Assembly: GCA_036517375.1 (NCBI GenBank) | Contig: DATDWM010000021.1 | Span: 1 to 48,253 of the forward strand | Direction: 5' to 3' | DNA from: Minisyncoccota bacterium | Lineage (GTDB): Bacteria; Patescibacteriota; Minisyncoccia; Phycocordibacterales; UBA9973 | DNA length: 48,253 nucleotides | Shown here: positions 3,717 through 48,253 of the stretch, in pieces | Layout: every line of letters begins with the position of its first letter | Numbering within the stretch: position 1 is the first letter of the stretch | Translations under genes and position numbers: made by a program | Notes under the pieces: model-generated | Seen by the model: only the letters and a program-made list of their open reading frames with translations | Database searches by the model: none | Told to the model about the DNA's origin: nothing

Positions 3717-3797
3717 CTAAGAGAGTTCACGAGTTCCTTCTAGGGTGTTAAGGGTAATACCCCCTGATGGTTCTCGCTTTGCAATAAGGAGCACACC

Positions 3798-4127: not shown

Positions 4128-4142
4128 ACCCGCACATCTATG

Positions 4143-4183
4143 CACGCGCTTGGGACCCCGGTCCTTGGCGCGTGTTTCTCTTT
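4143..4183 (+). terminator. GC-rich intrinsic terminator of island 1
   Basis: CACGCGC...GCGCGTG outer stem plus GGACC/GGTCC inner stem (4143-4174), then TTTCTCTTT. Confidence 0.7.
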
Positions 4184-4204
4184 CATTTAAATTTTTTATT
4201 TGTA

Positions 4205-4213
4205 TGCTACAAT
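4205..4213 (+). promoter_or_regulatory. Extended -10 (TGcTACAAT), 7 nt before ATG 4221
   Basis: TGcTACAAT followed by AATTCCC, then ATG. Leaderless geometry. Confidence 0.5.
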
Positions 4214-4220
4214 AATTCCC

Positions 4221-4439
4221 ATGTTTCAAAATTTTTTTATTAGAAAGATGCTTCGGACTCAGGGTGTGCCACCGGCGCAGATAGAGATGTTCGTAAATAT
4301 GATTGAAAAGAATCCCGAACTTTTCAAAACTATTGCCTCGGAGATAGAGGTTAAGGTAAAGGCGGGCCTTAGTCAGACGGACGCCAGCATGCTAGTTATG
4401 AAGAAATACGAGCAGGAACTGAAGAAATTGGGGGCTTAA
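4221..4439 (+). CDS. Hypothetical small helical protein (72 aa)
   Basis: Start chosen at MFQNFF because of the upstream -10 box; the ORF track starts it at 4200. No family recognised. Confidence 0.5.
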   Translation: MFQNFFIRKMLRTQGVPPAQIEMFVNMIEKNPELFKTIASEIEVKVKAGLSQTDASMLVMKKYEQELKKLGA

Positions 4440-22223: not shown

Positions 22224-22348
22224 GGTTTCGTGCAAGAGAAAATTTCCGGTGCGAGCTTGCGAGCCGGAAATAGGAGGGGATACGTGCACTGACCACGACC
22301 CACAAAATACCCCTAGAAATGGGGATTTTTTTGTGCTAAAGTATGAAT

Positions 22349-22972
22349 ATGAAAGATGAAGATGAACAAAAGCAGCCTGAAACTACAGAGTCGGAAGCGG
22401 AGTTGAGCCCAGTAGGTGATTCTACTGAATCAGACGAAGTCGTGGAATTTGAATTCAACGATGACGGTGAGGAAGACTTAAAGAAAACCCTAAAGAAGCT
22501 CCGCGCGGATTTAAAGCAGGTGAAGAAGGAAAAAGAAGAATATCTCCTCGGCTGGCAGAAGGAGCGAGCGGAGTTTGCTAATTATAAAAAAGAAGAGGAT
22601 GCTCGAAAGGCGATGTTTAGTGAAGCCATGCGCGAGAGGATTCTTACTCGATTCTTAACGGTGATGGATAGTTTCAACATGGCTTTTACCAACAAGGAAG
22701 CCTGGGAGAAGGTAGATCCAAACTGGCGCAAAGGAGTGGAATATATTTATTCCCAAATGGGAGGAATCTTCGAAGAGTACGGGGTGAAAGCCATCGGCGA
22801 AGTGGGAGACACCTTTGATCCCAATATTCATGAATCCATAGACCTAATTCCAACTGATAAAAAAGAAGACGATCATAAAATAGCTACAGTGATCCAGAAA
22901 GGCTACAAGCTAGGCGAGCGTGTCATCCGTCCAGCGAGGGTGAATGTATATGAATACAAAGGAGCAGAATAA
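22349..22972 (+). CDS. grpE: Nucleotide exchange factor GrpE
   Basis: Acidic N-terminus and the GrpE core (RAEFANYKKEEDARK...VIQKGYKLGERVIRPARVNV). TGcTAAAGT (22334-22342) lies 6 nt before ATG 22349. An in-frame ATG at 22343 is the alternative start. Confidence 0.88.
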   Translation: MKDEDEQKQPETTESEAELSPVGDSTESDEVVEFEFNDDGEEDLKKTLKKLRADLKQVKKEKEEYLLGWQKERAEFANYKKEEDARKAMFSEAMRERILTRFLTVMDSFNMAFTNKEAWEKVDPNWRKGVEYIYSQMGGIFEEYGVKAIGEVGDTFDPNIHESIDLIPTDKKEDDHKIATVIQKGYKLGERVIRPARVNVYEYKGAE

Positions 22973-24674
22973 AAATTGCCAGAACTGTAAACAAAACTTC
23001 ACGGTAGAACCGGAAGATTTTAATTTCTACGAAAAAATAAAAGTTCCAGCTCCGACTTGGTGCCCGGAGTGTAGATTCCAGCGAAGGATGAGTTGGCGTA
23101 ATGACTGGCATTTGTTTCGTAAAAAAGATGCTCGTACTGGCGAAGAGATTTTTTCATTTTTACCTGAGGAAAGCCCAGTGAAGATTTACGATAGAGATTA
23201 TTGGATCTCCGATGCGTGGGACCCCACTCGATTTGGCCGGGATTTTGATTTTACCAGGCCTTTTTTTGAACAGTTCAAGGAGTTACTTTATGAAGTACCC
23301 CTGCCTTCTCATTCAATGATAAATATAAGTAATTGTAAATATTGCACTAATGCTACAGGCATTAAAAATTGTTATTTAGTTCGGGGCGCAGGTTATACCG
23401 AAGACTCCGCGTATCTGATATGGGATCAGTATTCTAAGCTATGTTTTGATAGTCATATGACTAGTCGATGTGAATTATCTTATGGAAACGTTAATACGTC
23501 TAATTGCTATAAAACATTTTTTTCAGTTGATTGTGAAAGTTGCCAAGAAATGATTTTATCTAAAGATTGTGTTGCTTGTAATAGTTGTATTGCTTCCATA
23601 GGTCTTCGCAATAAGTCTTATTGCATTTTTAATAAACAATACACCAAAGAAGAGTATCAGAAGAAAATCATTGAATTAAATTTAGGGTCTAACGAAAGTT
23701 TTCAATCACTGAAAGCGGAAGCATATAAACACTGGCTTAAATATCCACAAAAATTTATGTATGGACGTCAAAACGTCGCAGTCTCCGGGGATTATATTTT
23801 TGAGTCAAAGAACGCAAAACACTGTTATAGAATAAGGGGGGTGGAAGATAGTAAATTTGTTCAAAATATTTTAATTGGACCAGTTCGAGATACTTACGAT
23901 GTCTCTAATTATGGAGAAAATATAGAACTTAGTTATGAATGTCTGGTTGCGGGCATCGGTGTGTCTAACGTTAAATTTAGTTTCCAAACCTATCCCAATG
24001 TAAGAAACTTAACCTATTGCATATTTTCTAGTAATGCTTTGGATTTATTTGGTTGTATTGGATTAAAGAAAAAACAGTATTGTATTTTAAATAAACAATA
24101 CTCTAAAGAAGAGTATAAAAGACTTGTGTCTAAAATAATTGAACATATGAAAAAAAACGGGGAGTATGGGGAATTTTTCCCATCCTCACTTTCGCCTTTC
24201 CCATATGAGGTAACGGCTGCAAATGAATTTTTCCCACTCACTGAAGAAGAGGCAAAGGCTAGAGGTTTCTTGTGGTACAACATCGAAAGACAAAATTATA
24301 AAATTACTTTAAATCCGGAAGATATTCCAGATGATATAAAAAATATCGATAAAGAGATTCTTGGTGAAGTTATTGGATGCGCAGATCGGGAATCTTGTGA
24401 GCATGAATGTACAGGAGCTTTTCGGGTGATAGAGGCTGAGCTTGATTTTTGTAAAAGAATGAACATCCCCCTACCTCGTCTTTGCACTAATTGCCGTCAC
24501 TACGAACGTTTATCATTAAGAAATTCACCAAGTTTTTACCATCGTGCTTGTATGTGTGATAAGAATCATACACATCATGAAGGCAAGTGTGAAGCTGAAT
24601 TCGAGACCTCATATGCTCCCGATAGGCCAGAAATAGTCTATTGCGAAAAGTGTTATCAGCAGGAAATATACTAA
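22944..24674 (+). CDS. Cys-rich multi-zinc-ribbon protein, paralog B0 (576 aa)
   Basis: The start overlaps the grpE 3' end by 29 nt. N-terminal ribbon CQNC-x24-CPEC; two internal repeats ending GL(R/K)xKxYCIxNKQY(T/S)KEEY; a second ribbon; terminal C-x17-CEKC. Paralog of 30506-32251. Confidence 0.8.
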   Translation: MYMNTKEQNKNCQNCKQNFTVEPEDFNFYEKIKVPAPTWCPECRFQRRMSWRNDWHLFRKKDARTGEEIFSFLPEESPVKIYDRDYWISDAWDPTRFGRDFDFTRPFFEQFKELLYEVPLPSHSMINISNCKYCTNATGIKNCYLVRGAGYTEDSAYLIWDQYSKLCFDSHMTSRCELSYGNVNTSNCYKTFFSVDCESCQEMILSKDCVACNSCIASIGLRNKSYCIFNKQYTKEEYQKKIIELNLGSNESFQSLKAEAYKHWLKYPQKFMYGRQNVAVSGDYIFESKNAKHCYRIRGVEDSKFVQNILIGPVRDTYDVSNYGENIELSYECLVAGIGVSNVKFSFQTYPNVRNLTYCIFSSNALDLFGCIGLKKKQYCILNKQYSKEEYKRLVSKIIEHMKKNGEYGEFFPSSLSPFPYEVTAANEFFPLTEEEAKARGFLWYNIERQNYKITLNPEDIPDDIKNIDKEILGEVIGCADRESCEHECTGAFRVIEAELDFCKRMNIPLPRLCTNCRHYERLSLRNSPSFYHRACMCDKNHTHHEGKCEAEFETSYAPDRPEIVYCEKCYQQEIY

Positions 24675-24720
24675 ACCTGTCTTAGTTTCAGTGTACTAGT
24701 ACGTGAGTATGGGAGGAGAT

Positions 24721-25239
24721 TTATTTGCCGAAAGTTTGCAATAAAACTTTAGCGGTTTCTTCATCTACGAACTCGGTGACTATTACTATCATCTCAGTCG
24801 TGAATCCTAAATCCTTTTTGATATTTATAAACAGGTGCTCGTATGGATGAGGGGAGATCCAGACGGAATTTTTCAGGCAGACGAAGTTTGCTTTCTTTAA
24901 GAGGTAGCGCAGGCTCTCGCGTTCACTCTTTCTTTGCTCTGGCAGGTCGAGCAAAATTATTCTCCAGAATCCGTCCCACTTAGTATTCACGAGTGTAGTT
25001 TCACTATCTAGCATTAGACTGTTTATTTTCTTCTTGCCTTCCCGGGTCAAGCGGGCATAGTCATTCTGCCCAGAGTATATGCTTTCTATTAACCCAGCCT
25101 CTTGTAGGCCCTTTAAGGACCTTGTAACGGCATATTTGTCTTGACCCAGATCGTTTTGTAGGTCAGGGAGGGAAATGGCTGATTTTTCGGCGAGCTTTTT
25201 TAGAATTTTCTTTCCGTATGTATTGTTTTGGCTTGACAT
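24721..25239 (-). CDS. Winged-HTH regulator with PaaX/Cas2-like C-terminal domain
   Basis: N-terminal wHTH (LPDLQNDLGQDKYAVTRSLKGLQEAGLIES). C-terminal WDGFWRIILLDLPEQRKSERESLRYLLKKANFVCLKNSVWISPHP resembles a PaaX-type effector domain. Confidence 0.5.
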   Translation of the reverse strand: MSSQNNTYGKKILKKLAEKSAISLPDLQNDLGQDKYAVTRSLKGLQEAGLIESIYSGQNDYARLTREGKKKINSLMLDSETTLVNTKWDGFWRIILLDLPEQRKSERESLRYLLKKANFVCLKNSVWISPHPYEHLFINIKKDLGFTTEMIVIVTEFVDEETAKVLLQTFGK

Positions 25240-25277
25240 GGATATAGGGTATCATATATACTAACTTTATACAAGTT

Positions 25278-25293
25278 TTTCGCGTTCGCGAAA
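25278..25293. promoter_or_regulatory. Operator candidate TTTCGCG-TT-CGCGAAA in the regulator/dnaK divergent region
   Basis: 7-bp inverted arms. It is the only CG-rich element in an otherwise AT-rich 108-bp intergenic region. Confidence 0.45.
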
Positions 25294-25347
25294 TATATGT
25301 AAATTACAAAATAATCATTTAATTATAAGCATAATTTAAAAAAATAT

Positions 25348-27282
25348 ATGTCAAAAATCATAGGAATAGACTTAGGTACAACAAATTCAGCGGTAGCAGT
25401 TATTGAGGGTGGCGCACCGAAGATTATTGAGAATACAGAAGGTAACCGCACCACGCCTTCAATAGTCTCTATTGCAAAAAATGGGGACAGGTTGGTAGGG
25501 CTTCTGGCCAAGAGGCAGGCGGTGACGAATCCTGAAAATACTGTTTATGGTATCAAGCGCTTCATGGGGCACAATTTTGACGATCCAGAAGTACAAAAGG
25601 ATTTGAAAAATGCATCTTTTAAAATTCAAAAGGGCGCAACAGGTGGAGTGGAAGTAAAAATAGGCGATAAGTGGATGCGTCCAGAAGAAGTTTCCGCCAT
25701 GATCCTTTCTAAAATTAAAACGGATGTAGAAGCAAAGCTTGGCGAGAAGATTACTGAAGCAGTCATCACTGTACCAGCATACTTCAACGATGCGCAAAGA
25801 AAGGCAACCAAAGACGCGGGTATGATCGCGGGCCTCGATGTAAAGCGTATTATCAACGAGCCAACTGCGGCTGCACTTGCGTACGGATTTAATAAAAAGA
25901 AAAATGAAAAAATAGTTGTCTACGACTTCGGAGGCGGAACTTTCGACGTGTCAGTTCTTGAGATTGGGGACGATGTTATCGAAGTTAAGTCTACTGATGG
26001 GGACAGTCACTTGGGTGGCCGCGACATTGACCACAAGATCATTGGCTGGATTGCAGAAGAATTTAAAAAGACGTCCGGCGTGGATGTACGAGCGGACAAG
26101 CTCGCTCTTCAGCGCTTAGACGAAGCGGCAGAGAAGGCTAAGATCGAGCTCTCCACCGCAGTTGAAACTGAAATAAATATTCCATTCATTACTTCTACGG
26201 CGGAAGGTCCACAGCACTTACTGCTCAAGATGACTCGTGCCCAGCTGGAATCCATTGCAGACGAATATATTTCTCGCTCTATTGAGATCACCAAGCGTGC
26301 GATGGCGGCTTCCGGATTCAAGATGGAAGACATGAATGAAATAATCATGGTAGGTGGCCAGACCAGAATGCCGAAGATTGTGGAAGAAGTTAAGAAAGTT
26401 TTCGGCAAGACTCCGAACCTCTCCATTAACCCTGACGAAGTGGTGGCCTTGGGTGCTGCTGTTCAGGCGGGAGTATTGCAGGGGGATGTGCGTGATGTTC
26501 TACTACTCGACGTTATACCGCTATCACTTGGAATAGAAACTCTCGGAGGCGTTGCGACAAAATTAGTAGAAAGAAATACAACTATTCCGTCCAGCAAGTC
26601 GCAGACATTTTCTACTGCGGCGGACAATCAGACTTCCGTAGAAATACACATAGTCCAAGGTGAGCGTCCTATGGCCTCCGACAACAAATCCCTCGGGCGG
26701 TTTGTGCTTGACGGCGTGCCTCCAGCGCCTCGTGGTATGCCTCAGATCGAGGTGGCCTTTGATGTGGATGCCAACGGAATATTGAATGTGACTGCTAAGG
26801 ATAAAGCTTCAGGTAAAACTCAATCCATAAAGATCGAAGCTTCTTCAGGACTTAAGGAAGATGAAATTAAAAAGATGCAGGCGGATGCTGAACTTCATGC
26901 GGAAGAAGATAAAAAGAAAAAGGAAGGTGTGGACATTCGAAATACCGCTGAAATGATTATTTACACTGCAGAAAAAGCATTAAAAGATAATGAAGCCAAG
27001 ATTCCTGCGGAATTGAAAGAGAGCGTGAATCTAAAAATCGCCGCCCTCCGAGGCGCGAAAGATTTACCTGCCGGAGCGGGCGGTAATGACATAGAAACAA
27101 TAAAGAAAGCGACCGAAGAACTCTCAAATGAAATGTCTAAAATAGGGGAAGCGGTAAGTAAGAGTTCAGCTGCCTCTGGCGCGCCTGGAGATGCTGAAAC
27201 TCCACCCACAGGCGACGCTGCCAAAGCCACCGATGCGGAATTCAAAGAAACTCCGCCGGAAGGGGAAGAACCGAAAGCGTAA
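25348..27282 (+). CDS. dnaK: Chaperone DnaK (Hsp70)
   Basis: [20 protein letters not shown] and the full Hsp70 architecture. Size 644 aa. Confidence 0.97.
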
Positions 27283-27287
27283 ATTAG

Positions 27288-27316
27288 AAAAAGCCTCTTA
27301 AGAGGCTTTTTCTTTT
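27288..27316 (+). terminator. Intrinsic terminator after dnaK
   Basis: AAGCCTC-TTAA-GAGGCTT stem with flanking A and T runs. Confidence 0.75.
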
Positions 27317-27345
27317 ACTCTAAAATATTTTATAATAGGTAATTC

Positions 27346-27681
27346 ATGTCCACGCAAAAGGAAACAGTTGAATTCATAATGGCTAAACTAGGGCGGGCCC
27401 CGAGGTTTTCGGTGCGGGCTATGTTTGGTGAATATGCTTTGTATGCTGACGGCAAAGTTGTGGGACTCATATGCAATGATCAGCTTTATGTAAAAATATT
27501 ACCAAAGTCAAGGGAGCTCGAAGATATTTGTGAAAAGGATGAAGCGTATCCGGGCTCTAGGAAGTTTTATGTGGTGGAAGAAGGGGAATTATCAAAATTA
27601 AAAAATCTGCCAGACATACTTTTAAATATTGCAAAGTCCTTGCCTGCTCCGAAAAAGAAAAAACCTAAAATAAAGAAATAG
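27346..27681 (+). CDS. TfoX N-terminal-domain protein with Lys-rich tail
   Basis: MFGEYALYADGKVVGLICNDQLYVK is typical of TfoX_N. TATAAT (27331-27336) lies 9 nt before the ATG. Confidence 0.6.
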   Translation: MSTQKETVEFIMAKLGRAPRFSVRAMFGEYALYADGKVVGLICNDQLYVKILPKSRELEDICEKDEAYPGSRKFYVVEEGELSKLKNLPDILLNIAKSLPAPKKKKPKIKK

Positions 27682-27685
27682 AAAT

Positions 27686-27716
27686 AAAGGCCCCGAGTGG
27701 GGGCTTTTAATTTTTT
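27686..27716 (+). terminator. Intrinsic terminator (copy 1 of a near-identical pair)
   Basis: AAAGGCCCC-GAGTG-GGGGCTTTTAATTTT. Confidence 0.75.
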
Positions 27717-27796
27717 ATATATTAGGTATAATACTAAATGTAAGTGATCTTCAAAATGCTCGCGTATCCAACCGCGAGAGAAAGGGGGTAAAATCC

Positions 27797-28036
27797 ATGA
27801 ACAGACAGAAGAAAAGCGGCCGCTTTTCGTTCCCCGTCAAGAACGAGGACTTCAGAGTCTCGAGCTACAGCGATCCAGGTGGCATCATCAAGACCTGCGT
27901 CGAAGTGGCGGTGAAGCCTGAAGGTGTTGCCATCCGGGACAGCAAGAACCCGAACAGTCCCGTACTCTACTTCACGCACGAAGAGATGGCGGCCTTCAAG
28001 CAAGGCCTCGTGAGCGGCGAGTTCGACAGGGCCTGA
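27797..28036 (+). CDS. DUF397-domain protein (79 aa) on GC-rich island 2
   Basis: Hallmarks CVEVA...VAIRDSKNP..PVLYFT..E..AF..G...GEFD. RBS AAAGGGGGT lies 7 nt upstream. 63 of 79 codons end in G/C (hand count). Confidence 0.8.
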   Translation: MNRQKKSGRFSFPVKNEDFRVSSYSDPGGIIKTCVEVAVKPEGVAIRDSKNPNSPVLYFTHEEMAAFKQGLVSGEFDRA

Positions 28037-28088
28037 AGAGTGTATGCTTATCTCGTAAGTCGAGTACGACAATCTCGGCACCCACGTA

Positions 28089-28137
28089 ACGGACCGTACA
28101 GCTGCAAGCTGTCCGGTCCGTGAGTACTTCTACTCAC
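28089..28137 (+). terminator. Two overlapping GC-rich hairpins downstream of the DUF397 gene (no clear U tract)
   Basis: ACGGACCGTACAGC-TGCAA-GCTGTCCGGTCCGT (13 bp, 1 mismatch), then GTGAGTA-CTTC-TACTCAC. Confidence 0.4.
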
Positions 28138-28215
28138 ATTGCAGACTTTACGTTAAGTATTTGGTACAATTATATAAAGGCCGAGATTATTAATTTAATT
28201 GTTTATATATTTAAT

Positions 28216-28371
28216 ATGCAAAATTATCAAAAAGGAAATACCAATACTGTCTTGATTGTAGTCGTACTTTTGCTTCTTGTTGGTTTCGGAGTATGGTGGT
28301 TCACCATGCGCAACGAAGCAGTAGATAATGATGGAGGAGTAAACATACAGCTAGGTGGGGATAGTCAATAG
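28216..28371 (+). CDS. Small single-pass membrane protein (51 aa)
   Basis: MQNYQKGNTNTVLIVVVLLLLVGFGVWWF... Start chosen at the first Met before the TM helix; the ORF track begins at 28120 inside the upstream hairpin. Confidence 0.45.
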   Translation: MQNYQKGNTNTVLIVVVLLLLVGFGVWWFTMRNEAVDNDGGVNIQLGGDSQ

Positions 28372-28398
28372 TAGGAGTTAAGTTTATGTTCTAAAAAT

Positions 28399-28428
28399 TA
28401 AAGGCCCCTTAGTGGGGCTTTTAATTTT
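28399..28428 (+). terminator. Intrinsic terminator (copy 2 of the near-identical pair)
   Basis: AAAGGCCCC-TTAGT-GGGGCTTTTAATTTT. Confidence 0.75.
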
Positions 28429-28437
28429 GTACTTTTC

Positions 28438-28446
28438 TGGTACAAT
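28438..28446 (+). promoter_or_regulatory. Extended -10 TGgTACAAT, 8 nt before ATG 28455
   Basis: The same TGGTACAAT motif also occurs at 28155-28163. Confidence 0.5.
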
Positions 28447-28454
28447 TTATATAT

Positions 28455-30506
28455 ATGGATCTGCCGCAAATACCTATCAATAGAGAGATAACTTATCTGG
28501 GCATTACTACCTATCGGGACAAGAACCAACTCTTCGGCATCAAGCGCAAGGACAGGCGTCAGCATGTTTATATTTTAGGAAAGTCTGGTACTGGTAAGTC
28601 CGTGCTCATGTTCAACATGATCATTCAAAATATTATAAACGGTGAAGGCGTTTGCGTAGTGGACCCGCACGGGGAGCTAGTCGAGGGTGTACTCTCTGCT
28701 ATTCCGCCGCACCGCATGAAGGACGTAATTTATTTTAATCCCGCGGATACGGACTTCCACATTGGATTTAACGTGCTAGAGCTAGTGGATCCGCAGTACA
28801 AGCACTTAGTGGCTTCTGGACTCATGGGAATCTTTACGAAGATCTGGGCCAATGCCTGGTCCGCCCGAATGGAATATATTTTAAATAACTGTATTTTAGC
28901 CTTGCTCGATACTCCTGGCACCACACTCCTAGGTATTCCTCGAATGCTGGTGGATAAGGATTACCGCCAGAAAATAATTTCTAATTTGAAAGATCCGGTG
29001 ATAAAGGCCTTCTGGGTGCATGAGTATGAAGCCTGGCAGGATAAATTTCGAAATGAAGCCATCGCGCCGATTCAAAACAAAGTAGGTCAATTCCTCTCTA
29101 CTTCAATCATTCGAAACGTGGTGGGCCAGTCCAAGAGCACCATCAACATTTTCGACATTATGAACGAGAGCAAGATTTTCCTAGTTAACGTCTCTAAGGG
29201 GCGCATCGGGGAGGACAACTCTGGGCTACTAGGCGGAATGATAATTACTAAAGTCCAGCTCGCAGCTATGGAGCGTGTGCGTATACCAGAAGAAATTCGA
29301 AAGGACTTCTATTTATATGTGGACGAATTCCAGAACTTCGTGACGGACGCCTTTGCGGGGATTTTATCTGAGGCTCGTAAGTATCGCTTGAACCTGACGG
29401 TGGCGCACCAGTACACGGCTCAGCTTATCTCCGACAAGAGCTCAGCTGTGCGTGATGCTGTCTTCGGCAACGTGGGTACGATGATAATTTTCCGAGTGGG
29501 TGCAGACGATGCGGACTTTTTAGAAAAAGAGTTCGAGCCGGAATTTACTCCGCAAGACATTGTGAACTTGCCGAACTATAAAATATACCTGAAGCTCATG
29601 ATAGAAGGCGTTACGTCTAGGCCTTTTTCCGCTAAGACTCTACCGGCGATGGTAAAGTCTGGCAATAAAGAAGTGGAGGACGAAGTTATCCGTTCTTCGC
29701 GTGAGTTGTACTGTCTGCCGAAAGACGTTATTGAGCGAGAAATAAACAACTGGAGCGGGATGTCTTTAGGCAACGAGAGTGACGTCACGAGTAGTAGTGT
29801 GGAGAGATTTAAAGCAGTGTGTTCGAATTGTGATAAGGAAACCACCGTACCCTTTGCGCCTACGCCTGGCCGGCCGGTGTACTGCAAGGAATGCATGGAG
29901 AAAATAAAATCCGGAGAACTTAAGGTGAAAGGATCTGTCAAAGAAATCAAAATGGATGAAGGCAGATTTTACAAACCTTTGGCAGACTTAGGAATAGAAT
30001 TTGCGCAGAAGGATGCCGACGGAGAGAAGATAGTGCGAATGCCAATGCCAGATAAACCGAAAGTGGTAAGTAGCGTAATGAATAAATTTAAGCCGCCAGT
30101 CAAGAAAGAAAATTTTGCGCTCCGGGATATTTTAAATAAAATTACGAGCGCGGGTGGGACCCCGCCGCCTTCAGTAGCGAAAGTAGTTACTCCGGTGCTT
30201 GCTCCAGCACCTGCGGCTATTTCCCTGGGAGATTTGAAAAATAAAGTTAAAACAGAAATCCCAAAGGATCGCGCGGCAAGCCATGCAGATATGAATAAGC
30301 TTAAAGATTTAATTCAAGAAAAAACCTTATCTACTTCTCCCGTGGCCCCGCCCGCTGTGCAAGCCCAAGCTCAAGTAGAAACTCCACCGCCACCAAACAT
30401 TCCAACTCCTCAAGCTCCTCCTAAAACTCCGCCCTCCGCGAGCAACGGGACGAGTAAAGTGAAAGAAGTCCCAGAAGATGTATTGAAGAAGATACTCGAA
30501 GAGTAA
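28455..30506 (+). CDS. TraD/VirD4-like (FtsK-HerA superfamily) P-loop NTPase A1 with CxxC-x17-CxxC ribbon and Pro-rich tail
   Basis: Walker A GKSGTGKS, Walker B FYLYVDEFQNF, and SEARKYRLNLTVAHQY. C-terminal CSNC-DKETTVPFAPTPGRPVY-CKEC, then a low-complexity P/A/Q tail. Confidence 0.75.
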   Translation: MDLPQIPINREITYLGITTYRDKNQLFGIKRKDRRQHVYILGKSGTGKSVLMFNMIIQNIINGEGVCVVDPHGELVEGVLSAIPPHRMKDVIYFNPADTDFHIGFNVLELVDPQYKHLVASGLMGIFTKIWANAWSARMEYILNNCILALLDTPGTTLLGIPRMLVDKDYRQKIISNLKDPVIKAFWVHEYEAWQDKFRNEAIAPIQNKVGQFLSTSIIRNVVGQSKSTINIFDIMNESKIFLVNVSKGRIGEDNSGLLGGMIITKVQLAAMERVRIPEEIRKDFYLYVDEFQNFVTDAFAGILSEARKYRLNLTVAHQYTAQLISDKSSAVRDAVFGNVGTMIIFRVGADDADFLEKEFEPEFTPQDIVNLPNYKIYLKLMIEGVTSRPFSAKTLPAMVKSGNKEVEDEVIRSSRELYCLPKDVIEREINNWSGMSLGNESDVTSSSVERFKAVCSNCDKETTVPFAPTPGRPVYCKECMEKIKSGELKVKGSVKEIKMDEGRFYKPLADLGIEFAQKDADGEKIVRMPMPDKPKVVSSVMNKFKPPVKKENFALRDILNKITSAGGTPPPSVAKVVTPVLAPAPAAISLGDLKNKVKTEIPKDRAASHADMNKLKDLIQEKTLSTSPVAPPAVQAQAQVETPPPPNIPTPQAPPKTPPSASNGTSKVKEVPEDVLKKILEE

Positions 30507-32251
30507 TGAAACAGGAAATAAAAAACTGTCAGAATTGCAAACTAGACTTCACGATAGAACCGGAGGATTTTAATTTCTACGAAAAAATAAAGGTTCCGCC
30601 TCCGACATTTTGTCCACAGTGTCGGGTTATGCGCAGATTAACTTGGCGCAACGAGCGTTCCTTGTATCACAATGTTTGCGCCCTTTCGGGCAAGAAAATA
30701 ATTTCCATGTTTTCACCAGAAACTAAACTAGTGGTTTACGATCGAGATATTTGGTGGAGCGACAAATGGGATCCATTTGATTATGGGCAAGACTACAACT
30801 TCTCTAAGCCATTTTTCCAGCAATTTAAGGAGCTCCTAGAAAGGGTGCCACTTGCCAACTTAGGTAATACCAATATGGTAAATAGTGATTATGCCAATCA
30901 TAGTTTGGATTGCCGTAATTGTTATTTGATATATGCTTCCACATGGAATGAAAATGTATCTTACTCTACAGGAGTAATGCGTACGAAAGACTCCATGGAT
31001 CTTTATAAAGTTCAGAATTCAGAACGATGCTATGAAGATGTTTTAAATGCTAGCCTTTTCAACACTCATTTTAGTTACGATAGTGATGAATGTATTGATT
31101 CCATGTTCCTAACTTCATGCCTTGGGCTAAATAACTGTTTGGGTTGCGTGAACTTACGTCATAAAAAATACTGTATTTTTAATCAGCAGTATTCAAAAGA
31201 AGATTACGAAAGAGTCCGAGAAACCTATGACTTAGGTAGCTACATAGGTCTGGAGAAATTTAAGCCGGAGTATGCAGAATTTCTAAGTAAACAATTTAGG
31301 AGATATGCTTTTATCTACAAATCTATAAATGTTACAGGAGACAATGTTATGAACTCTAGAAACTGTAAAATGGTATTTGATATTTTTGAAGAAGCTGAGA
31401 ACTCTAAATACCTTTATCATGGCGGATACGGAATTAAAGAAAGCTATGATGGATATGGAACCGGCCTCAGAACAGAATTTTTATATGAAAGCGTGGATAC
31501 AGGTCTAGATGGTTCAAGGCAACTCTTCTCCATTCTTAATCATAGCTGTTTAGAAACTCACTATACTTATATGTGTTATGGTGCCAAATTCTTATTTGGT
31601 TGCGTGGGAGTTCGAGACCATGATTACTCTATTTTAAATAAAAAATATACTAGAGAAGAGTACAAGGAACTTCTACCTAAGGTCGTACAGCACATGAATG
31701 ACATGCCATATGTTGATGAGCAGGGTAGAGTCTATAAATACGGAGAGTTCTTCCCGATGGAACTTTCACCATTTGCTTATAATGAAACCATTTTGCAAGA
31801 ATATTACCCATTAGATAAAAAAAGAGTAAAAGAATATGGTTTAAAATTAAAAGAAAAAGAGCACAGAGATTATAAAATTGAAGTAAAAACAGATGACTTA
31901 CCGGACCATATCAAGGACACTCCAGAGAGTATTGTGGGTAAAGTAATAGAATGCATACACAAAGGTGAGTGTGAAGAGCAGTGCACAGAAGCATTTAAAA
32001 TCAGGCCGGAAGAATTGCAATTTCTTAAAAAAATAAATGTAGCTCTGCCCCGCCTTTGTCCCAATTGTAGACATTTTGCAAGATTAAAACAAAGAAACCC
32101 TATGAAACTTTGGCACCGTCAGTGCATGTGCGACAAGACTAGTCATCAGCACGGAGAAGCAAGGTGCCAAGTGGAATTTGAAACAAGCTATGCTCCGGAG
32201 AGGCCGGAGATAATTTATTGTGAAAAGTGTTATCAGAAAGAGGTGTATTAA
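30506..32251 (+). CDS. Cys-rich multi-zinc-ribbon protein, paralog B1 (581 aa)
   Basis: The ATG shares one base with the A1 stop (TAATG). Same architecture as 22944-24674; ends ...C-x17-CEKCYQKEVY. Confidence 0.8.
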   Translation: MKQEIKNCQNCKLDFTIEPEDFNFYEKIKVPPPTFCPQCRVMRRLTWRNERSLYHNVCALSGKKIISMFSPETKLVVYDRDIWWSDKWDPFDYGQDYNFSKPFFQQFKELLERVPLANLGNTNMVNSDYANHSLDCRNCYLIYASTWNENVSYSTGVMRTKDSMDLYKVQNSERCYEDVLNASLFNTHFSYDSDECIDSMFLTSCLGLNNCLGCVNLRHKKYCIFNQQYSKEDYERVRETYDLGSYIGLEKFKPEYAEFLSKQFRRYAFIYKSINVTGDNVMNSRNCKMVFDIFEEAENSKYLYHGGYGIKESYDGYGTGLRTEFLYESVDTGLDGSRQLFSILNHSCLETHYTYMCYGAKFLFGCVGVRDHDYSILNKKYTREEYKELLPKVVQHMNDMPYVDEQGRVYKYGEFFPMELSPFAYNETILQEYYPLDKKRVKEYGLKLKEKEHRDYKIEVKTDDLPDHIKDTPESIVGKVIECIHKGECEEQCTEAFKIRPEELQFLKKINVALPRLCPNCRHFARLKQRNPMKLWHRQCMCDKTSHQHGEARCQVEFETSYAPERPEIIYCEKCYQKEVY

Positions 32252-32254
32252 ATA

Positions 32255-32263
32255 TGTTATAAT
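32255..32263 (+). promoter_or_regulatory. Extended -10 TGtTATAAT, 11 nt before ATG 32275
   Basis: Perfect TGnTATAAT in the 23-bp B1/A2 spacer. No SD. Confidence 0.5.
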
Positions 32264-32274
32264 ATAACGACGTT

Positions 32275-33741
32275 ATGCCTAAGCCAAATCGAGTCCAGAT
32301 AATAAAATACGCTCCGCCACCACCAGAACTTCCAGTTTTTGGGAAAGTAAAACCCGAGGACGTTTCTTTTATTGGCCGGACGAATTACGTGGCATCGCTC
32401 GAAGAAAAGAAATTTATTTTCGGCATAAAGCGCGTGGACCGTCGCAGACACCTTTATATCATCGGTAAGTCCGGAGTCGGGAAGACCAAGCTTCTAGAGC
32501 TTTTCATCCGCCAAGACGTGAGCTACGGACATGGATTGTGCCTAATTGACCCGCACGGAGACGTGATAGATGCCATGCTTGACTACATACCGAGGGAGCG
32601 CATAGAAGACGTGTGTATCATTGATCCCTCCGACATTGATTTCCCAGCTTCTTTCAATCCTCTCGCGAACGTAGACCCCATGTTTAAATTCCAGCTCACT
32701 CAGGGGCTCATAGAAGTCTTCCAGAAACAGTTCGGCGCCAACTGGACTCCGCGCCTGGAGCACGTTTTCCGCTTTACGTGTCTGGCGCTCCTCGACTATC
32801 CGCATGCTACTATGCGCGGCATGATTTCAATGCTGACTGATCGAAACTATCGCCAGAAGGTAGTAGAGTACATTACAGACGACATGGTAAAAAGATTCTT
32901 CGCTATCGAATTCGCCGACTGGTCCGAGAAGTTCGACACTGATGCTATCATTCCATTGGTGAACAAGCTCGGACAATTCCTCTCGGATCCGCTTCTCCGT
33001 AACATCTTCGGACAGAAAGAAAACAAAATAGACGTAAGTAAACTCATGAACGAAAAGAAAATAATTTTCATCAATCTCTCGAAGGGTCGCCTAGGGGAGG
33101 AGAATTCGTCTTTCTTGGGTTCTATGTTTCTGACTAAAATAAAACAAGCTGGTATGGAGCGCGCGGCCATTCCAGAGAAAGATCGAGTAGATTTTTATCT
33201 TTATGTGGACGAGTTTCAGAACGTGGTAACGCAGACATTTGAAAATATTTTATCCGAAGCTCGCAAATACGGACTCAACTTAACCATCGCGCATCAGTAC
33301 GTGGGACAAATTCTTCAGAAGGTGCATCAGGCGGTATTAGGAAACGTGGGCTCTGTTATAACCTTCCGGGTGGGTGGGGAAGACGCAGTAAAATTGAAGC
33401 CAGAATTCTCCCCAGTCTTCGACGTGAAAGATATGATCAACCTAGCGGTAACGGAATTCTATATTAAAATGACTATTGATGGAGAGTCTTATGATCCATT
33501 TTCCGCAGAGACACTTCGAGTTCTGCCACCACCTCATGCTTCGTACCGGGAGGAAGTAATTGCTTCCTCACGCCAAAAATATTCTATCCCGAAGGATGCG
33601 GCCGCGAAGCTTATTGCTGAAGAAGAATCAACTATTATCCGCAGCGCGGAGGAGAAGTCTATCATTGAAGGTAAAGGCAAGAAAGGGCAAGATTCAGAGG
33701 ACAAAAAAGAGGATAGCCTTGAAGCGGAACCTATGATATAA
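32275..33741 (+). CDS. TraD/VirD4-like P-loop NTPase A2 (paralog of A1, no zinc ribbon)
   Basis: Walker A GKSGVGKT, Walker B FYLYVDEFQNV, and SEARKYGLNLTIAHQY. Acidic/Lys-rich C-terminus. Confidence 0.75.
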   Translation: MPKPNRVQIIKYAPPPPELPVFGKVKPEDVSFIGRTNYVASLEEKKFIFGIKRVDRRRHLYIIGKSGVGKTKLLELFIRQDVSYGHGLCLIDPHGDVIDAMLDYIPRERIEDVCIIDPSDIDFPASFNPLANVDPMFKFQLTQGLIEVFQKQFGANWTPRLEHVFRFTCLALLDYPHATMRGMISMLTDRNYRQKVVEYITDDMVKRFFAIEFADWSEKFDTDAIIPLVNKLGQFLSDPLLRNIFGQKENKIDVSKLMNEKKIIFINLSKGRLGEENSSFLGSMFLTKIKQAGMERAAIPEKDRVDFYLYVDEFQNVVTQTFENILSEARKYGLNLTIAHQYVGQILQKVHQAVLGNVGSVITFRVGGEDAVKLKPEFSPVFDVKDMINLAVTEFYIKMTIDGESYDPFSAETLRVLPPPHASYREEVIASSRQKYSIPKDAAAKLIAEEESTIIRSAEEKSIIEGKGKKGQDSEDKKEDSLEAEPMI

Positions 33742-33742
33742 T
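33734..33742 (+). promoter_or_regulatory. Extended -10 TGaTATAAT, 6 nt before the dnaJ ATG
   Basis: Lies in the last codons of A2. AGGTAG follows, then ATG 33749. Confidence 0.55.
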
Positions 33743-33748
33743 AGGTAG

Positions 33749-34822
33749 ATGAGTAAAGACTATTATGGAGTTCTGGGCGTTAATAAAGAGGCTTCCAAGG
33801 ACGAAATAAAGAAGGCCTTTTATAAGCTGGCGCATAAATATCATCCTGACAAAAAGGATGGCGACGAGGCTAAATTCAAGGAAGTAAACGAGGCCTATCA
33901 AGTGCTCTCGGATGAAGACAAGCGCTCTAAGTATGACCAATTCGGTAGCGCCGACGCACAAGGCTTTGGTGGCTCGCAGTCTGGATTTGAGGGCTTCGAC
34001 TTCTCTGGATTTCAGAATGGTGGGGCGGACTTTGACTTTGGAAATTTAAATGACATTTTTAGTGATTTCTTTGGTGGGGGCGGAGGTAGAACTCAAGCGC
34101 GCCGTGGACGAGACATTTCTACTGAAATTCAGATTTCTTTTTCGGATGCAATTTTCGGTACAAATCGCAAAATTTTAATTACCAAAACTTCTAATTGTGT
34201 TACCTGTAACGGCTCCGGGGCCAAGCAAGGCTCTAAGATGGAGACGTGTAAGTCATGTAACGGCCAGGGGCAGATCCGGGAGATGAAGCGTACCATCCTA
34301 GGTAGTATCTCGAGCACCAAGGTGTGTGAGAGCTGTCATGGGAAAGGAGAAGTGCCAAAGGAGATTTGTGAAAAGTGTAAAGGCAAAGGCGTGCTCCGCC
34401 AGGAGGAAGAAATTTCCATCGTGGTACCAGCTGGAATTCGGGATGGTGAGATGATCCGGATGACCGGACACGGGGAGGCAGTGTCACACGGAACCTCGGG
34501 CGACCTTTATATCAAAATAAATGTAGCTCCACATGCAATGTTTAAGCGTGATGGGCATGACTTGGTGATGAATTTAAACTTAAAACTCTCAGACGCTCTT
34601 CTAGGAACAAAGCATAAAGTTGAAACTCTAGATGGGGAGATAGAAGTAACAATTCCCGAGGGCGTATCAATCAATGAAATTCTCCGCGTCCGCGGCAAGG
34701 GTGTGCCAGTGTCAAAAAATAAAAGAGGCGACCTCTTAATAAAACTCAATATCAAACTCCCTAGCAAGCTGTCCAAGAAATCTCGCGAGCTCATCGAAGA
34801 GATGAAAAAAGAAGGAATATAA
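33749..34822 (+). CDS. dnaJ: Co-chaperone DnaJ (Hsp40, type I)
   Basis: J-domain with HPD (KYHPDK), a G/F region, and four CxxCxGxG zinc motifs. Confidence 0.95.
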
Positions 34823-37431: not shown

Positions 37432-37481
37432 AAAGAGTAATTGTTCTACACTTTTTCATACCTCTAGAAAGGAGGCCTTCC

Positions 37482-37712
37482 GTGTTCGAGCGAATTTTTA
37501 AGCCAGAAGAGGATAGAGTGCCTCCTAATAAGGTGCCTTCGGTGGCCGTGAAGTTGCATGTCAGAACCGCGTGCTGCGGGTGCGTGATATGGAGCTACAC
37601 AGAGCCGGCCAAAGATCACTACAATGCTCAGCCCACTACCTTCACGGACTGTCACGTGAAGGGTTTCAACTGTGCGGACCCAACCCACAAGCCAAACAGC
37701 CCGATCGAATAA
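37482..37712 (+). CDS. Hypothetical Cys-rich 76-aa protein on GC-rich island 3
   Basis: GTG start with AAAGGAGG 6 nt upstream. Six Cys, including the ACCGC motif. A very strong terminator follows. Confidence 0.55.
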   Translation: MFERIFKPEEDRVPPNKVPSVAVKLHVRTACCGCVIWSYTEPAKDHYNAQPTTFTDCHVKGFNCADPTHKPNSPIE

Positions 37713-37718
37713 CCTTCG

Positions 37719-37766
37719 TGGCCGCGCGCGCTCCCATGGAGCCGCGCGGCCAGCTCGTTTTTATTT
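37719..37766 (+). terminator. Very strong GC hairpin terminator between island 3 ORF and the cysS 3' end
   Basis: TGGCCGCGCG(C)GCTCC-CAT-GGAGCCGCGCGGCCA forms a 15-bp stem with one bulge. GCTCG plus TTTTT follow. Confidence 0.75.
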
Positions 37767-37769
37767 GGA

Positions 37770-39197
37770 TTATATTTTAGAAATTTTTGGACCAGTTGCA
37801 GAACCTGCCTCGCCGGCAGGCAGGTCTTTTACTTCGTAGCCGAGAGTATTTATTTTATCTCGAATCTCATCTGAATTTTTAAAATCTTTTTTAAGTCGTG
37901 CTTCCTCACGTTCGTGCACTAATTTCTTTACTTCTTCCGGAATATTTATATTTGTTTCATTTTCCTTTTTCTCCGCATTTGCAAAGTCGAGTCCCAGCAC
38001 CTTGTCAAAGTCTAAAATCGTCGCTTTTTTATCTGCATCTGACACACTGTCGTCCTTTATTAGGTCCCATAGCAAGGAAAGCCCCCTAGGAGTATCTAGG
38101 TCGTCGGCTATACGTTCTTGGAACTTGGATTGGTACTCCTGGCTTACTTTACCAATCTCTTTACCAAGGCCAACATAGAGCCCGTAGAGGCGTTTTAGGG
38201 CTGTTTCTGCTCCTTCTAGGGCATCCCAATTGAAGTTCATCTTAGTTCGATAACTAGCCATTAGAACCCAAAAACGATATGTTAAAGGGTTAATTCCTTT
38301 TTCTGTAAGGCTTGCTAGTCTAAGGAAATTTCCTCCAGATTTTGCCATCTTTGCTCCTACTACATCTATGTGCTCGCTATGTATCCAAAATTTAACAAAA
38401 GGTTTTTTACCAGTCGCGCTTTCTGATTGCGCAATCTCGTTGGTATGGTGGGTGGGAATGAGATCAACACCTCCAGTATGAATATCAAATTGTTCTCCTA
38501 GAAATTTCATACCGATTGCAGAACATTCTATGTGCCAGCCTGGAAATCCAGTACCCCACGGGGACTCAAATCCAATTTTTGGATTAAATTTCCAAAGAGC
38601 AAAGTCTTCTGGGCTTTTTTTCTGCGGATTTTCCGCAATTCTTGTGTGAGCCTCATCTCTAGTGGTTTTTCCGCCTTGCAATATTCCGTAGTCAGGCATT
38701 TTAGACGTATCGAAATAAATTCCGTCGCTTGTTTTATAAGCGAAGCCTTTTTCTTCAAGTTGTTGTACAAGCTGAACGTCTTCTTTTATATAATCACTCG
38801 CGAAATAAATTCCACTTGGTACTTTTATATTTAGTTCAACCAGGTCATCTTTAAATTTGTCGGTATAAAATTCTGCCAACTCTCGCATGTTCTTTAGTGT
38901 TAGTTCCTTTCCTTCGCGCACAAGCGCCATTGTCATCTTGTCTTCGCCGCTATCTGCATCACTAGATAAAATTCCGATATCTGTGATATTCATAACCCGT
39001 TTAACTTCGTAGCCAGAATATTCAAAAGTTTTTTGTAAAATATCAGCAAAGATATATGCACGCAGGTTGCCTATGTGGGCATAGTTATTAACTGTTGGTC
39101 CACAAGTATACATGCTAACCTCGCCCGCTTTAAGTGGTATAAATTCTTCTTTGGTTCGGGAGAGGGTGTTATACAGCTGCATTTTCTTTAAATTCAT
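37770..39197 (-). CDS. cysS: Cysteine--tRNA ligase
   Basis: HIGH-type motif (YAHIGNLR) and KMSKS-type motif (KMAKSGGN). Start trimmed to MNLKKMQLYNT...; the ORF-track N-terminus overlaps the upstream transporter gene. Confidence 0.88.
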   Translation of the reverse strand: MNLKKMQLYNTLSRTKEEFIPLKAGEVSMYTCGPTVNNYAHIGNLRAYIFADILQKTFEYSGYEVKRVMNITDIGILSSDADSGEDKMTMALVREGKELTLKNMRELAEFYTDKFKDDLVELNIKVPSGIYFASDYIKEDVQLVQQLEEKGFAYKTSDGIYFDTSKMPDYGILQGGKTTRDEAHTRIAENPQKKSPEDFALWKFNPKIGFESPWGTGFPGWHIECSAIGMKFLGEQFDIHTGGVDLIPTHHTNEIAQSESATGKKPFVKFWIHSEHIDVVGAKMAKSGGNFLRLASLTEKGINPLTYRFWVLMASYRTKMNFNWDALEGAETALKRLYGLYVGLGKEIGKVSQEYQSKFQERIADDLDTPRGLSLLWDLIKDDSVSDADKKATILDFDKVLGLDFANAEKKENETNINIPEEVKKLVHEREEARLKKDFKNSDEIRDKINTLGYEVKDLPAGEAGSATGPKISKI

Positions 39198-47033: not shown

Positions 47034-47809
47034 ATAAAATTGATTTAGTTTTTGAGAAGCTAAGAGGGGAGAAACGTTGCGGACTGATGCCATTTTTAGT
47101 TGCAGGATTTCCAAATTTTAATAGTTCATTAAGCTTGCTAAAGTTGCTTGCACAGCACTCAGATTTTTTAGAAATAGGTTTTCCTTACTCTGATCCTTTG
47201 GCTGATGGTCCAATAATTCAAAAGGCTGATCAAGTGGCTTTAAGAGCTGGATCAACTTCAGATTACGTCTTTAAACTTATTAGTAAACTACGGGAAACTA
47301 CTAAAATTCCTATCACAGTTTTAGTATATGCTAATTTAATATATCAGCGAGGTGTAAATAAATTTTATTCTGATGCTAAAGCTGCCGGCATAGACGGGGT
47401 TTTAATACCAGATATTCCATTTGAGGAGATGGATATATTTGTAAAAGCGGCAAAGAAAAATAATGTAGCCAATATTTATTTACTTTCATCTAGTACTAGT
47501 GAGCAGCGCCTCGTTAATATTTTGAAAGTTGCAGAAGGGTATCTTTATTTGACTTCTATTGTTGGTATTACTGGTGTTAAAAAAGATATCCCACAAGATA
47601 CATTAGATTACATAAAAAAACTGAAAAAGAAAACTAAACTACCGGTGGCTGTGGGATTTGGCATATCAAATTCTACTCAAGTAAAAAAATTAAAAAAAGC
47701 TGGCGCAAATGGGGTAATTATGGGAAGTAGTTTAATTCAACTTATCCAAAGATCCCCTAAAGTAAATAGAAGTGCTATCGTAGGATTTTTAGAAAGATTT
47801 AAGATCTAA
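47030..47809 (+). CDS. trpA: Tryptophan synthase alpha chain
   Basis: ATGA overlap with trpB. Contains [17 protein letters not shown] and the GFGIS motif. Confidence 0.92.
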
Positions 47810-47822
47810 AATATCTGAGTAC

Positions 47823-47851
47823 TTGCGTTTTTATCCATAAATCAATTCAAT
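47823..47851 (+). promoter_or_regulatory. Promoter candidate TTGCGT-N17-TTCAAT upstream of island 4 ORF
   Basis: TTGCGT at 47823-47828 and TTCAAT at 47846-47851. Confidence 0.35.
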
Positions 47852-47905
47852 AGACTCTTTTATGACTAAGCGCTACTGTAGCGTCTAGTTCTTTCGGAGG
47901 TAGAT

Positions 47906-48229
47906 ATGCCCAAGGACACGTTCGAAGTATGGCTCTCGAAGCGGAGTTCGAGTCGCACACGCATGACAGTTCCGGCCCATGTGAAGAAACTCGCGTGCGG
48001 CTGCAGTCGCGAAGAACTCCGTTCGCCTAGGTTCAACATTGGGCTCAAGGAGGACGGATGGGTTCACGTCGGGTGGGATACGCATGACCCCCTCCACCTG
48101 CGGCCGGCCCCACCAATGGGTTCGGCGTGTGCGACGACAGTTCTCGCCCCCTCTGACGCGACAAAGGGGCCGGGACACCCCATTGATTCAAAGTCAGTGC
48201 GGGAGGATAGTGGCTGGGAGGGGTACTAG
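47906..48229 (+). CDS. Hypothetical 107-aa protein on GC-rich island 4
   Basis: GGAGG lies 5 nt before the ATG. The HVKKLACGC motif resembles HVRTACCGC of the island 3 protein. The island runs to the window edge. Confidence 0.5.
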   Translation: MPKDTFEVWLSKRSSSRTRMTVPAHVKKLACGCSREELRSPRFNIGLKEDGWVHVGWDTHDPLHLRPAPPMGSACATTVLAPSDATKGPGHPIDSKSVREDSGWEGY

Positions 48230-48253
48230 AAGTCTTCAGGCGGGCGGATCCGA

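Follow-up and report, generated by a model that had tools for sequence, protein, structure and literature searches.

DUF397 proteins and the locus under study

Proteins of the DUF397 family were described as found only in actinobacteria at the time of writing of one report (PMC7159879) and as actinobacterial in another (PMC2701414), and the closest described systems are BldB and its Streptomyces paralogs, the XRE-DUF397 gene pairs (Scr1/Scr2, SCO4441/4442), which are predicted type II toxin-antitoxin modules, and the VMAP (vWA-MoxR) ternary conflict systems (Kaur et al. 2020). In this study we analysed a DUF397 gene encoding 79 aa, located in a 421-nt GC-rich island (27717-28137) on a 48,253-nt stretch of DNA from a Minisyncoccota bacterium (contig DATDWM010000021.1, GenBank assembly GCA_036517375.1), and this whole stretch is called the window below. 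The host is a Paceibacterota-type bacterium of the candidate phyla radiation (CPR), whose DnaK is 89% identical to that of Paceibacterota JAGOUX01, and no paper linking DUF397 to CPR or Patescibacteria was found. The gene is probably a resident, monocistronic, BldB-like gene whose high G+C content at third codon positions (GC3) has been maintained, and not a recent import.

The window protein has in common with BldB and its Streptomyces paralogs the Pfam domain, a size below 100 aa and a predicted arrangement of four strands and a helix, and it resembles BldB in the motifs SSYS, CVEVA and VA(V/I)RDSKxP and in a C-terminal (E)W.AF..G...GEF helix. It differs from BldB in its host, which is a patescibacterium and not an actinomycete, in having no whiJ (XRE) or abaA-like neighbour, in a CPR-specific N-terminal segment (F.F.V.D.DF), and in an identity to actinobacterial copies of just 38-47%; its codon usage is far GC-richer than that of the host, whereas the two match in Actinobacteria. 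As compared to the XRE-DUF397 pairs, the window gene corresponds to the DUF397 component, but the upstream XRE gene is missing here and in all CPR loci examined, and in the CPR relatives DUF397 comes first and an alpha/beta hydrolase gene follows. The VMAP-linked DUF397 proteins, presumed multimerising co-effectors, likewise occur without a helix-turn-helix partner, but they form multi-copy actinobacterial arrays beside vWA/MoxR genes, whereas the window gene is a single copy between TfoX_N and a small membrane open reading frame (ORF), with no vWA/MoxR gene among the neighbours scanned. Closest by sequence (55-61% identity) are the patescibacterial DUF397-alpha/beta hydrolase pairs defined here, which share with the window gene the 5' hairpin, the Shine-Dalgarno sequence, the hairpin after the stop codon and the GC3 excess, but the window gene and its ortholog in JAGOUX01 are without the hydrolase. 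The CPR subfamily of DUF397 departs from the actinobacterial paradigm in host phylum, in usual partner and in its maintained GC3 excess.

Domain identity and homologs

The 79-aa ORF matches the Pfam family PF04149 (DUF397) at E=2.1e-15, with 57.1 bits against a gathering cut-off of 24 and profile positions 3-53 of 55 covered, and the actinophage-derived family phrog_10815 of PHROG at E=1.9e-16; the NCBIfam search and the PADLOC defence-system search gave no match for the gene. All four hallmarks named in the initial annotation of this DNA, which had been made from the sequence alone, were located (CVEVA at residues 34-38, VAIRDSKNP at 44-52, PVLYFT at 55-60 and GEFD at 74-77), in addition to VSSYSD at residues 21-26, and the protein conforms to the published motif set KSSYSG, CVEVA and VAVRDSKxP (PMC10294661). 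The DUF397 fold has been described as four strands and a helix, strand 2 carrying CxE and strand 3 ending in RDS (PMC7159879), and the AlphaFold2 model of the window protein (pLDDT 78.8) agrees with this description: strands are predicted at residues 20-22, 35-39, 44-48 and 57-59, followed by a C-terminal helix at 61-72, with CVE in strand 2 and RDS closing strand 3. No relative of solved structure was found by sequence, and the best Foldseek match against the PDB (E=0.5) was PTB/FERM-like noise.

A word-indexed protein search gave 12 matches, all on low-GC contigs, and the named ones were from Candidatus Pacebacteria (70% identity) and the Patescibacteria group (55%). Identity to the best homologs is 55-70%, and all those with a name are patescibacterial. 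A scan of the GTDB species representatives, whose patterns were built from a CPR alignment and which measures breadth within CPR and not absence elsewhere, found 13 loci, all in Patescibacteria and all on low-GC contigs, namely in Paceibacterota, Zambryskiibacteria, Campbellbacteria, Parcubacteria and metagenome-assembled genomes labelled Saccharibacteria. The family itself is much larger, and an exhaustive profile search returned 6370 representative clusters at E<=1e-3, of which 228 reached E<=1e-10. Among 161 sequences, composed of the 12 word-index matches and the top representatives of the profile search, 85 had the amino-acid make-up of AT-rich genomes (FYMINK/GARP >= 1), and the named ones were all Paceibacterota, Niyogibacteria or Zambryskibacteria; the amino-acid composition of the window protein is host-like as well. 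The actinobacterial copies mentioned above come from Streptomyces, Nocardia, plasmids and actinophages. Of 29 metagenome loci, 24 lay in low-GC contexts and five on actinobacterial-type contigs of 63-71% GC, the latter encoding R-rich proteins of actinobacterial type. The CPR copies stand in at least three unrelated contexts, namely beside dnaK/TfoX, beside SET, histidine kinase and NUDIX genes, and beside NusA. By its sequence, the window gene appears to belong to a large and diversified Patescibacteria branch of DUF397, and we found no paper describing this branch. A neighbour-joining tree of 129 representatives of these proteins of ~70 aa was star-like, with only a rough split between K-rich (CPR-type) and R-rich (actinobacterial-type) sequences. 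The assignment of the gene to PF04149 stands, whereas the recent actinobacterial origin that had been attached to it is not supported.

A syntenic ortholog and the question of recent import

A syntenic ortholog was found in Paceibacterota JAGOUX01 (locus L005). The gene order in the window is PaaX_M (minus strand), dnaK, TfoX_N, DUF397, a small ORF and a VirD4-like gene, and in L005 it is PaaX_M (minus strand), dnaK, further genes, TfoX_N, a 94-aa ORF, DUF397, further genes and a VirD4-like gene, so the dnaK/TfoX_N/VirD4-like neighbourhood is seen again there. Amino-acid identity between the two loci is 89% for DnaK, 78% for the VirD4-like protein, 69% for TfoX_N and 65% for DUF397, and identity at four-fold sites is 35% for dnaK, 34% for the VirD4-like gene, 23% for TfoX_N and 35% for DUF397, values at which synonymous sites appear to be at or near saturation. 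The block of the 5' untranslated region (UTR) from the hairpin to the Shine-Dalgarno sequence is still alignable, with stems CUCGCG/CGCGAG in the window and CUCGGG/CCCGGG in L005, and the stem is preserved via one compensatory and one wobble change. At four-fold sites the G+C content of DUF397 is 0.74/0.83, against 0.36-0.53 in the neighbour genes. The same codon is used at identical residues in a fraction of 0.60 between window and L005 and of 0.49-0.67 between the window and other relatives, and codon bias alone predicts 0.51 for two unrelated copies. The ratio of nonsynonymous to synonymous substitution rates (dN/dS) of ~0.3 between the window and L005 indicates that the DUF397 protein is under purifying selection. 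The residence of the gene in this Paceibacterota lineage would go back at least to the split from JAGOUX01. The 94-aa ORF (L005 5543-5827, minus strand), divergent between TfoX_N and DUF397, has its own Shine-Dalgarno sequence, a GC content of 0.51 and a GC3 of 0.65; no Pfam family matches it, and the window lacks it.

The initial annotation had proposed that the gene was acquired horizontally from a high-GC donor, whose phylum could hint at the host if the bacterium is an episymbiont. On this reading the import from an actinobacterium would be recent, and the codons would be the donor's signature, not yet ameliorated. The Streptomyces-like codon usage (GC3 0.79) and the curated literature that calls DUF397 actinobacterial speak for such an origin, and the terminator/promoter module present at 27686 and 28400 could be an insertion scar, but the best homologs come from related low-GC CPR genomes, far above the actinobacterial copies in identity, and the gene is not missing from the related site in L005, a genome at which synonymous sites are saturated. 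Codon positions 1 and 2 resemble those of the host, as does the amino-acid composition, the same GC3 excess is found in most CPR homologs of AT-rich genomes while the adjoining partner gene is host-like, and no integrase, tRNA or transposase was found near the gene (the sole tRNA of the window is at 2140). We therefore consider a recent actinobacterial import most unlikely, and the suggested hint at the host is not supported either. An ancient transfer between phyla, in either direction, may be conceivable, and it would be uninformative on the present-day host. Chimeric assembly, which had been raised as another explanation of the island, is excluded at the assembly level: the segment 27300-28200 recurs exactly in four assemblies that were made by different pipelines (two from ENA and one each from JGI and Logan), both junctions are spanned, and the identical protein occurs on 7 contigs.

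GC3 excess in the CPR subfamily

The GC content of the DUF397 gene is 57.1% and its GC3 is 78.7%, and the counts given earlier were reproduced exactly (63 of 79 codons ending in G or C against 9 of the first 31 dnaK codons; 36 G+C in 27901-27960 and 18 in 27661-27720). The GC3 of 0.787 compares with 0.39 +/- 0.08 across the 42 other ORFs of the window (z=4.9), where genuine genes range from 0.21 to 0.52, and the codon usage is indeed alien to the host, about five standard deviations above the window genes. By codon position the GC content is 0.51/0.41/0.79, with positions 1 and 2 host-like, so the excess is located at third positions. The island as a whole has 52.3% GC, which places it in the top 0.5% of 421-nt windows, and only ~3688-4281 and 47769-48252 equal it within the window.

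The same excess was found throughout the subfamily. GC3 was more than 2 standard deviations above that of neighbouring genes in 13 of 16 loci, and the offset was missing only where the GC3 of the host is already >=0.54; gene GC exceeded flank GC in 32 of 36 unique low-GC loci (mean +0.107), and the five contigs of 63-71% GC showed no offset between DUF397 and its context. The clearest comparison is that with the downstream hydrolase gene, which DUF397 exceeds in GC3 in 23 of 23 loci (0.61 vs 0.28, Wilcoxon p=2.4e-7), and in the read-through fusion ORF of locus L036 the composition drops abruptly at the domain border. A relic of a donor would have decayed alongside the partner gene, and we therefore infer a gene-specific force, either selection on the mRNA or GC-biased conversion. 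In the CPR subfamily the GC3 excess appears to be a trait of this one gene, kept up under saturating divergence at synonymous sites, and the G/C-ending codons would be maintained by a GC-biased process or by selection on the mRNA, be it on its stability, its structure or its translation, and not be left over from a donor. The GC-rich look of the window gene comes almost wholly from such G/C-ending synonymous codons.

Several sources of this force were considered. Expression-linked translational selection in the host was rejected, because dnaK and the ribosomal-protein genes are just slightly C-enriched, with a C/(C+T) of 0.42-0.43 against 0.85 in DUF397. An embedded conserved nucleotide element was rejected as well, since synonymous variation occurs at all conserved amino-acid columns and no codon column is invariant among 30 homologs. 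For selection on mRNA structure, the fold z-scores of the coding sequences are weakly negative and insufficient to establish it.

A different history is that the gene entered CPR by an ancient transfer and was then exchanged like a cassette among CPR bacteria, with GC-biased gene conversion instead of mRNA selection sustaining GC3. The three or more unrelated contexts of the gene, the compact form of every copy with its own promoter and hairpins, the uncoupled divergences of DUF397 and hydrolase (rho=0.04) and a synonymous divergence (dS) of DUF397 from the syntenic ortholog below that of the neighbours would all fit such exchange. However, neither mobility genes nor repeats were observed beside the copies, except for the terminator pair of the window, and there is one copy per locus, hence no obvious donor for conversion. 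Exchange within an AT-rich pool would still ameliorate the codons without a biased force, so this history differs from that of a resident gene with maintained codons in the force only, and we regard it as rather unlikely.

The reading of a resident gene with maintained GC3 has to be weighed against a number of observations that do not favour it. By standard estimators the dS between the window and L005 is lower in DUF397 (0.8-0.9) than in the neighbours (>=1.8 or undefined), which is predicted by constraint on synonymous sites and equally by later replacement of the gene. The synteny with L005 is loose, with extra genes on both sides and the 94-aa GC-rich ORF between TfoX_N and DUF397, and the star-like DUF397 tree cannot be rooted. 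The pairwise divergences of DUF397 and hydrolase are poorly correlated (r=0.28, rho=0.04), and co-inheritance of the pair is therefore not shown. Extra mRNA folding of the coding sequence is weak (mean z ~-1.2, negative in 10 of 13 homologs), and the analyses of coding-sequence folding, codon columns and antisense ORFs found no cause of the GC3 bias. Finally, no partner was identified in this genome, and the proposed function is drawn from Streptomyces alone.

On a more speculative reading, which is a long shot, DUF397 would be kept across Patescibacteria at a GC3 far beyond the mutational equilibrium of the genome, unlike the adjoining gene. If a specific force is at work, it could be strong selection for a message of unusual stability or special translation that encodes a small binding protein of critical dosage, or repeated resampling or conversion from high-GC organisms with which these episymbionts are in contact. 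In the case of such resampling, the protein would mimic BldB and engage the WhiJ/BldB developmental network of its host, an actinobacterium, and, if so, the two nearby VirD4-like coupling ATPases might deliver it, which is conjectural.

If the gene is resident as proposed, it provides a clean counter-example to the inference of recent horizontal transfer, donor or host from composition only, because a resident gene may have a foreign look in most of the genomes in which it occurs. The excess of GC3 specific to one gene in AT-rich, reduced genomes is also a tractable natural case of codons kept against mutation bias. DUF397/BldB, actinobacteria-only in the literature, would be extended to a large Patescibacteria branch with a different partner, a minimal alpha/beta hydrolase.

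Partner genes and likely function

In 25 of 35 CPR loci, in addition to the fusion in L036, DUF397 is followed at a distance of 35-111 nt by the start of a small alpha/beta hydrolase (134-174 aa). The hydrolase, which contains GxSxG and DH motifs, matches Pfam Abhydrolase_5 at E=3.8e-7; for naming there are just weak EstD/BioV-like esterase matches, with no PDB relative and no named close relative. The partner is absent from the window and L005, and tblastn against the 48-kb window gave no match at E<=1e-3. The L036 fusion (135-911) is a 258-aa ORF in which DUF397, minus its last helix and stop codon, runs through an intergenic UUCG hairpin into the alpha/beta hydrolase, and this ORF represents a Rosetta-stone fusion or else a copy in degeneration. 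Genes for NUDIX hydrolases adjoin the DUF397-hydrolase pair in L009 (5104-5592) and L011 (6747-7181), echoing the mutT/NUDIX pseudogenes after XRE-DUF397 pairs in S. clavuligerus (PMC8269248), and histidine-kinase and SET-domain genes lie near the pairs of L009 and L010. 

The initial annotation was right that the gene has no XRE partner: TfoX_N lies upstream and a small membrane ORF downstream, no XRE/HTH gene adjoins DUF397 in the window, an adjacent XRE gene was found in no CPR locus examined, and neither HTH_3 nor HTH_31 was recorded among the neighbours in six annotated homologous loci. [quoted passage not shown] By analogy, the protein would act in the manner of the Streptomyces BldB type, most likely without DNA binding and by oligomerising with and modulating a partner, and the present lineage would be a solo derivative whose hydrolase partner was lost or is encoded elsewhere. 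There is a roughly even chance that the window protein is small, oligomerises and binds or modulates a partner protein, acting in trans or alone. The hydrolase partnership supports the idea that DUF397 is a small module for protein binding in general and is not specific to XRE.

The prediction of a type II toxin-antitoxin module in which DUF397 acts as toxin and Xre as antitoxin (Makarova et al. 2009, PMC2701414; PMC7159879) would make the window gene an orphaned toxin, which its small size and own promoter would suit. However, no antitoxin-like gene adjoins it here or in any CPR locus examined, 14 DUF397 proteins overexpressed in S. coelicolor were not toxic (PMC10364602), PADLOC gave no match, and the dN/dS of ~0.3 is that of a maintained gene and not of a decaying orphan. 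An orphaned toxin is accordingly very improbable, and a BldB-like modulator remains the preferred reading of the protein.

Transcription unit

The island would form a self-contained transcription unit, with a -10 box, a 5' hairpin abutting a strong Shine-Dalgarno sequence, the 79-aa ORF and two 3' hairpins (Table 1), and the Shine-Dalgarno sequence and the three hairpins noted initially were all located. The -10 hexamer was missed by a consensus promoter scan, since the -35 is weak, and L005 has TATAAC upstream of its hairpin at a similar distance. The 5' hairpin is kept in position with changed stems (CUCGGG/CCCGGG in L005, CCUGGG/CCCAGG in L036, GCGCC/GGCGC in L008), AGAA(A)GGAG follows each, and homologous loci have AAAGGAG or GGAGGT at the equivalent Shine-Dalgarno position. 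The 5' windows of 19 of 25 CPR DUF397 loci fold at <= -8 kcal/mol, as compared to 40% of control windows (p=0.016). Neither 3' hairpin has a T-run, and for this reason they were not called by the terminator scan; the first is probably the end of the transcript or a 3' stabiliser. The 3' hairpin of L005 opens with the same AACGG(G/A)CCG and then has TTTT, and L008-L011 have a strong hairpin past the stop codon as well. Each CPR copy thus looks like a compact unit of -10 box, hairpin before a strong Shine-Dalgarno sequence, ORF and strong hairpin after the stop codon, a design which we infer to be compatible with a stabilised mRNA.

Table 1. Coordinates and composition of the DUF397 unit and of neighbouring features in the window
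Feature	Position	Strand	Remarks
Terminator/promoter spacer			GC 30%
Putative promoter, -10-like hexamer TATAAT	27727..27732	+	Read from sequence
5' UTR			GC 48%
5' UTR hairpin CTCGCG-TATCCAAC-CGCGAG (N8 loop)	27759..27778	+	Inverted repeat, in minimum free energy fold; abuts Shine-Dalgarno sequence
Shine-Dalgarno sequence AAAGGGGGT	27781..27789	+	8 nt 5' of ATG
DUF397 (BldB-like) coding sequence	27797..28036	+	GC 57%
Palindrome GAAAAGCGGCCGCTTTTC	27811..27828		Perfect, 18 nt; codons 5-11
3' region			GC 52.5%
3' hairpin 1 (ACGGACCGTACAGCT/AGCTGTCCGGTCCGT)	28089..28121	+	15-nt arms, 93% complementary; probable transcript end or stabiliser
3' hairpin 2 (GTGAGTA-CTTC-TACTCAC)	28120..28137	+	7-nt arms
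Next spacer	28138..28215		GC 21.8%, drop directly after 3' hairpin 2
Antisense ORF	27734..28081	-	115 aa
Terminator and -10 module, first site	27686..27732		
Terminator and -10 module, second site	28400..28446		
Heat-shock set grpE ... dnaK ... dnaJ	22343..34822		Broken up by other genes
VirD4/TraD-like coupling ATPase	28455..30506		Treble-clef zinc finger
Cys-rich protein	30506..32251		581 aa
VirD4/TraD-like coupling ATPase	32275..33741		

The whole window transcript folds better than shuffled sequences (z=-3.86), and this could suggest a segment that chiefly specifies a structured RNA or an antisense gene, with the DUF397 frame secondary; the antisense ORF is open across the gene, with host-like codon-position GC of 0.65/0.41/0.54. 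The coding sequence alone, however, gives a z of only -1.6, so the signal is driven by the UTR hairpins, and Rfam on 27650-28250 (gathering cut-off or E<=1) returned only chance-level sraL and L20-leader fragments. Stops in the antisense frame need sense TTA, CTA or TCA, so a GC3-rich gene leaves this frame open by default, and in 7 more distant homologs the frame is interrupted. The antisense ORF has no Pfam match and was accordingly rejected as a by-product of GC3-rich codons. With no invariant codon column among the 30 homologs in addition, an RNA or antisense gene is scarcely credible here, as opposed to a protein-coding DUF397 gene. The perfect palindrome within the ORF scores terminator-like on the minus strand and is not conserved in L005.

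Genomic neighbourhood and other GC-rich stretches

The upstream TfoX_N gene has its own terminator, and the downstream neighbour is a membrane-type ORF of 51-83 aa. The heat-shock set of the window is broken up by TfoX_N, DUF397 and further genes, among them two VirD4/TraD-like coupling ATPases and a Cys-rich protein. A near-identical terminator and -10 module of ~45 nt (AAAGGCCCC-N5-GGGGCTTTTAATTTT ... GGTA(T/C)AAT; 48 of 77 aligned bases) is present at only two sites in 48 kb, which flank DUF397 and the small ORF, and this pair could be a duplication or insertion scar or a reused intergenic design.

Three other GC-rich stretches were seen in the window. The most GC-rich one (60-64%) is 47769-48252, just past trpA, which shows neither codon periodicity nor a match in Pfam or Rfam and contains no tRNA or tmRNA, with fold z-scores of -1.4 on the plus strand and +0.3 on the minus strand. 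An intergenic stretch of 54-59% GC (37464-37780) lies upstream of cysS (minus strand); its overlapping ORFs are short and without periodicity, and the sole Rfam match is at chance level (E=0.86). The second GC-rich island (3688-4281) contains a 109-aa ORF (3798-4127, plus strand) with coding-like periodicity (GC 0.57/0.39/0.59), which has no Pfam or Rfam match and is a called gene on 11 public contigs, beside a TrmB-like regulator and BipA.

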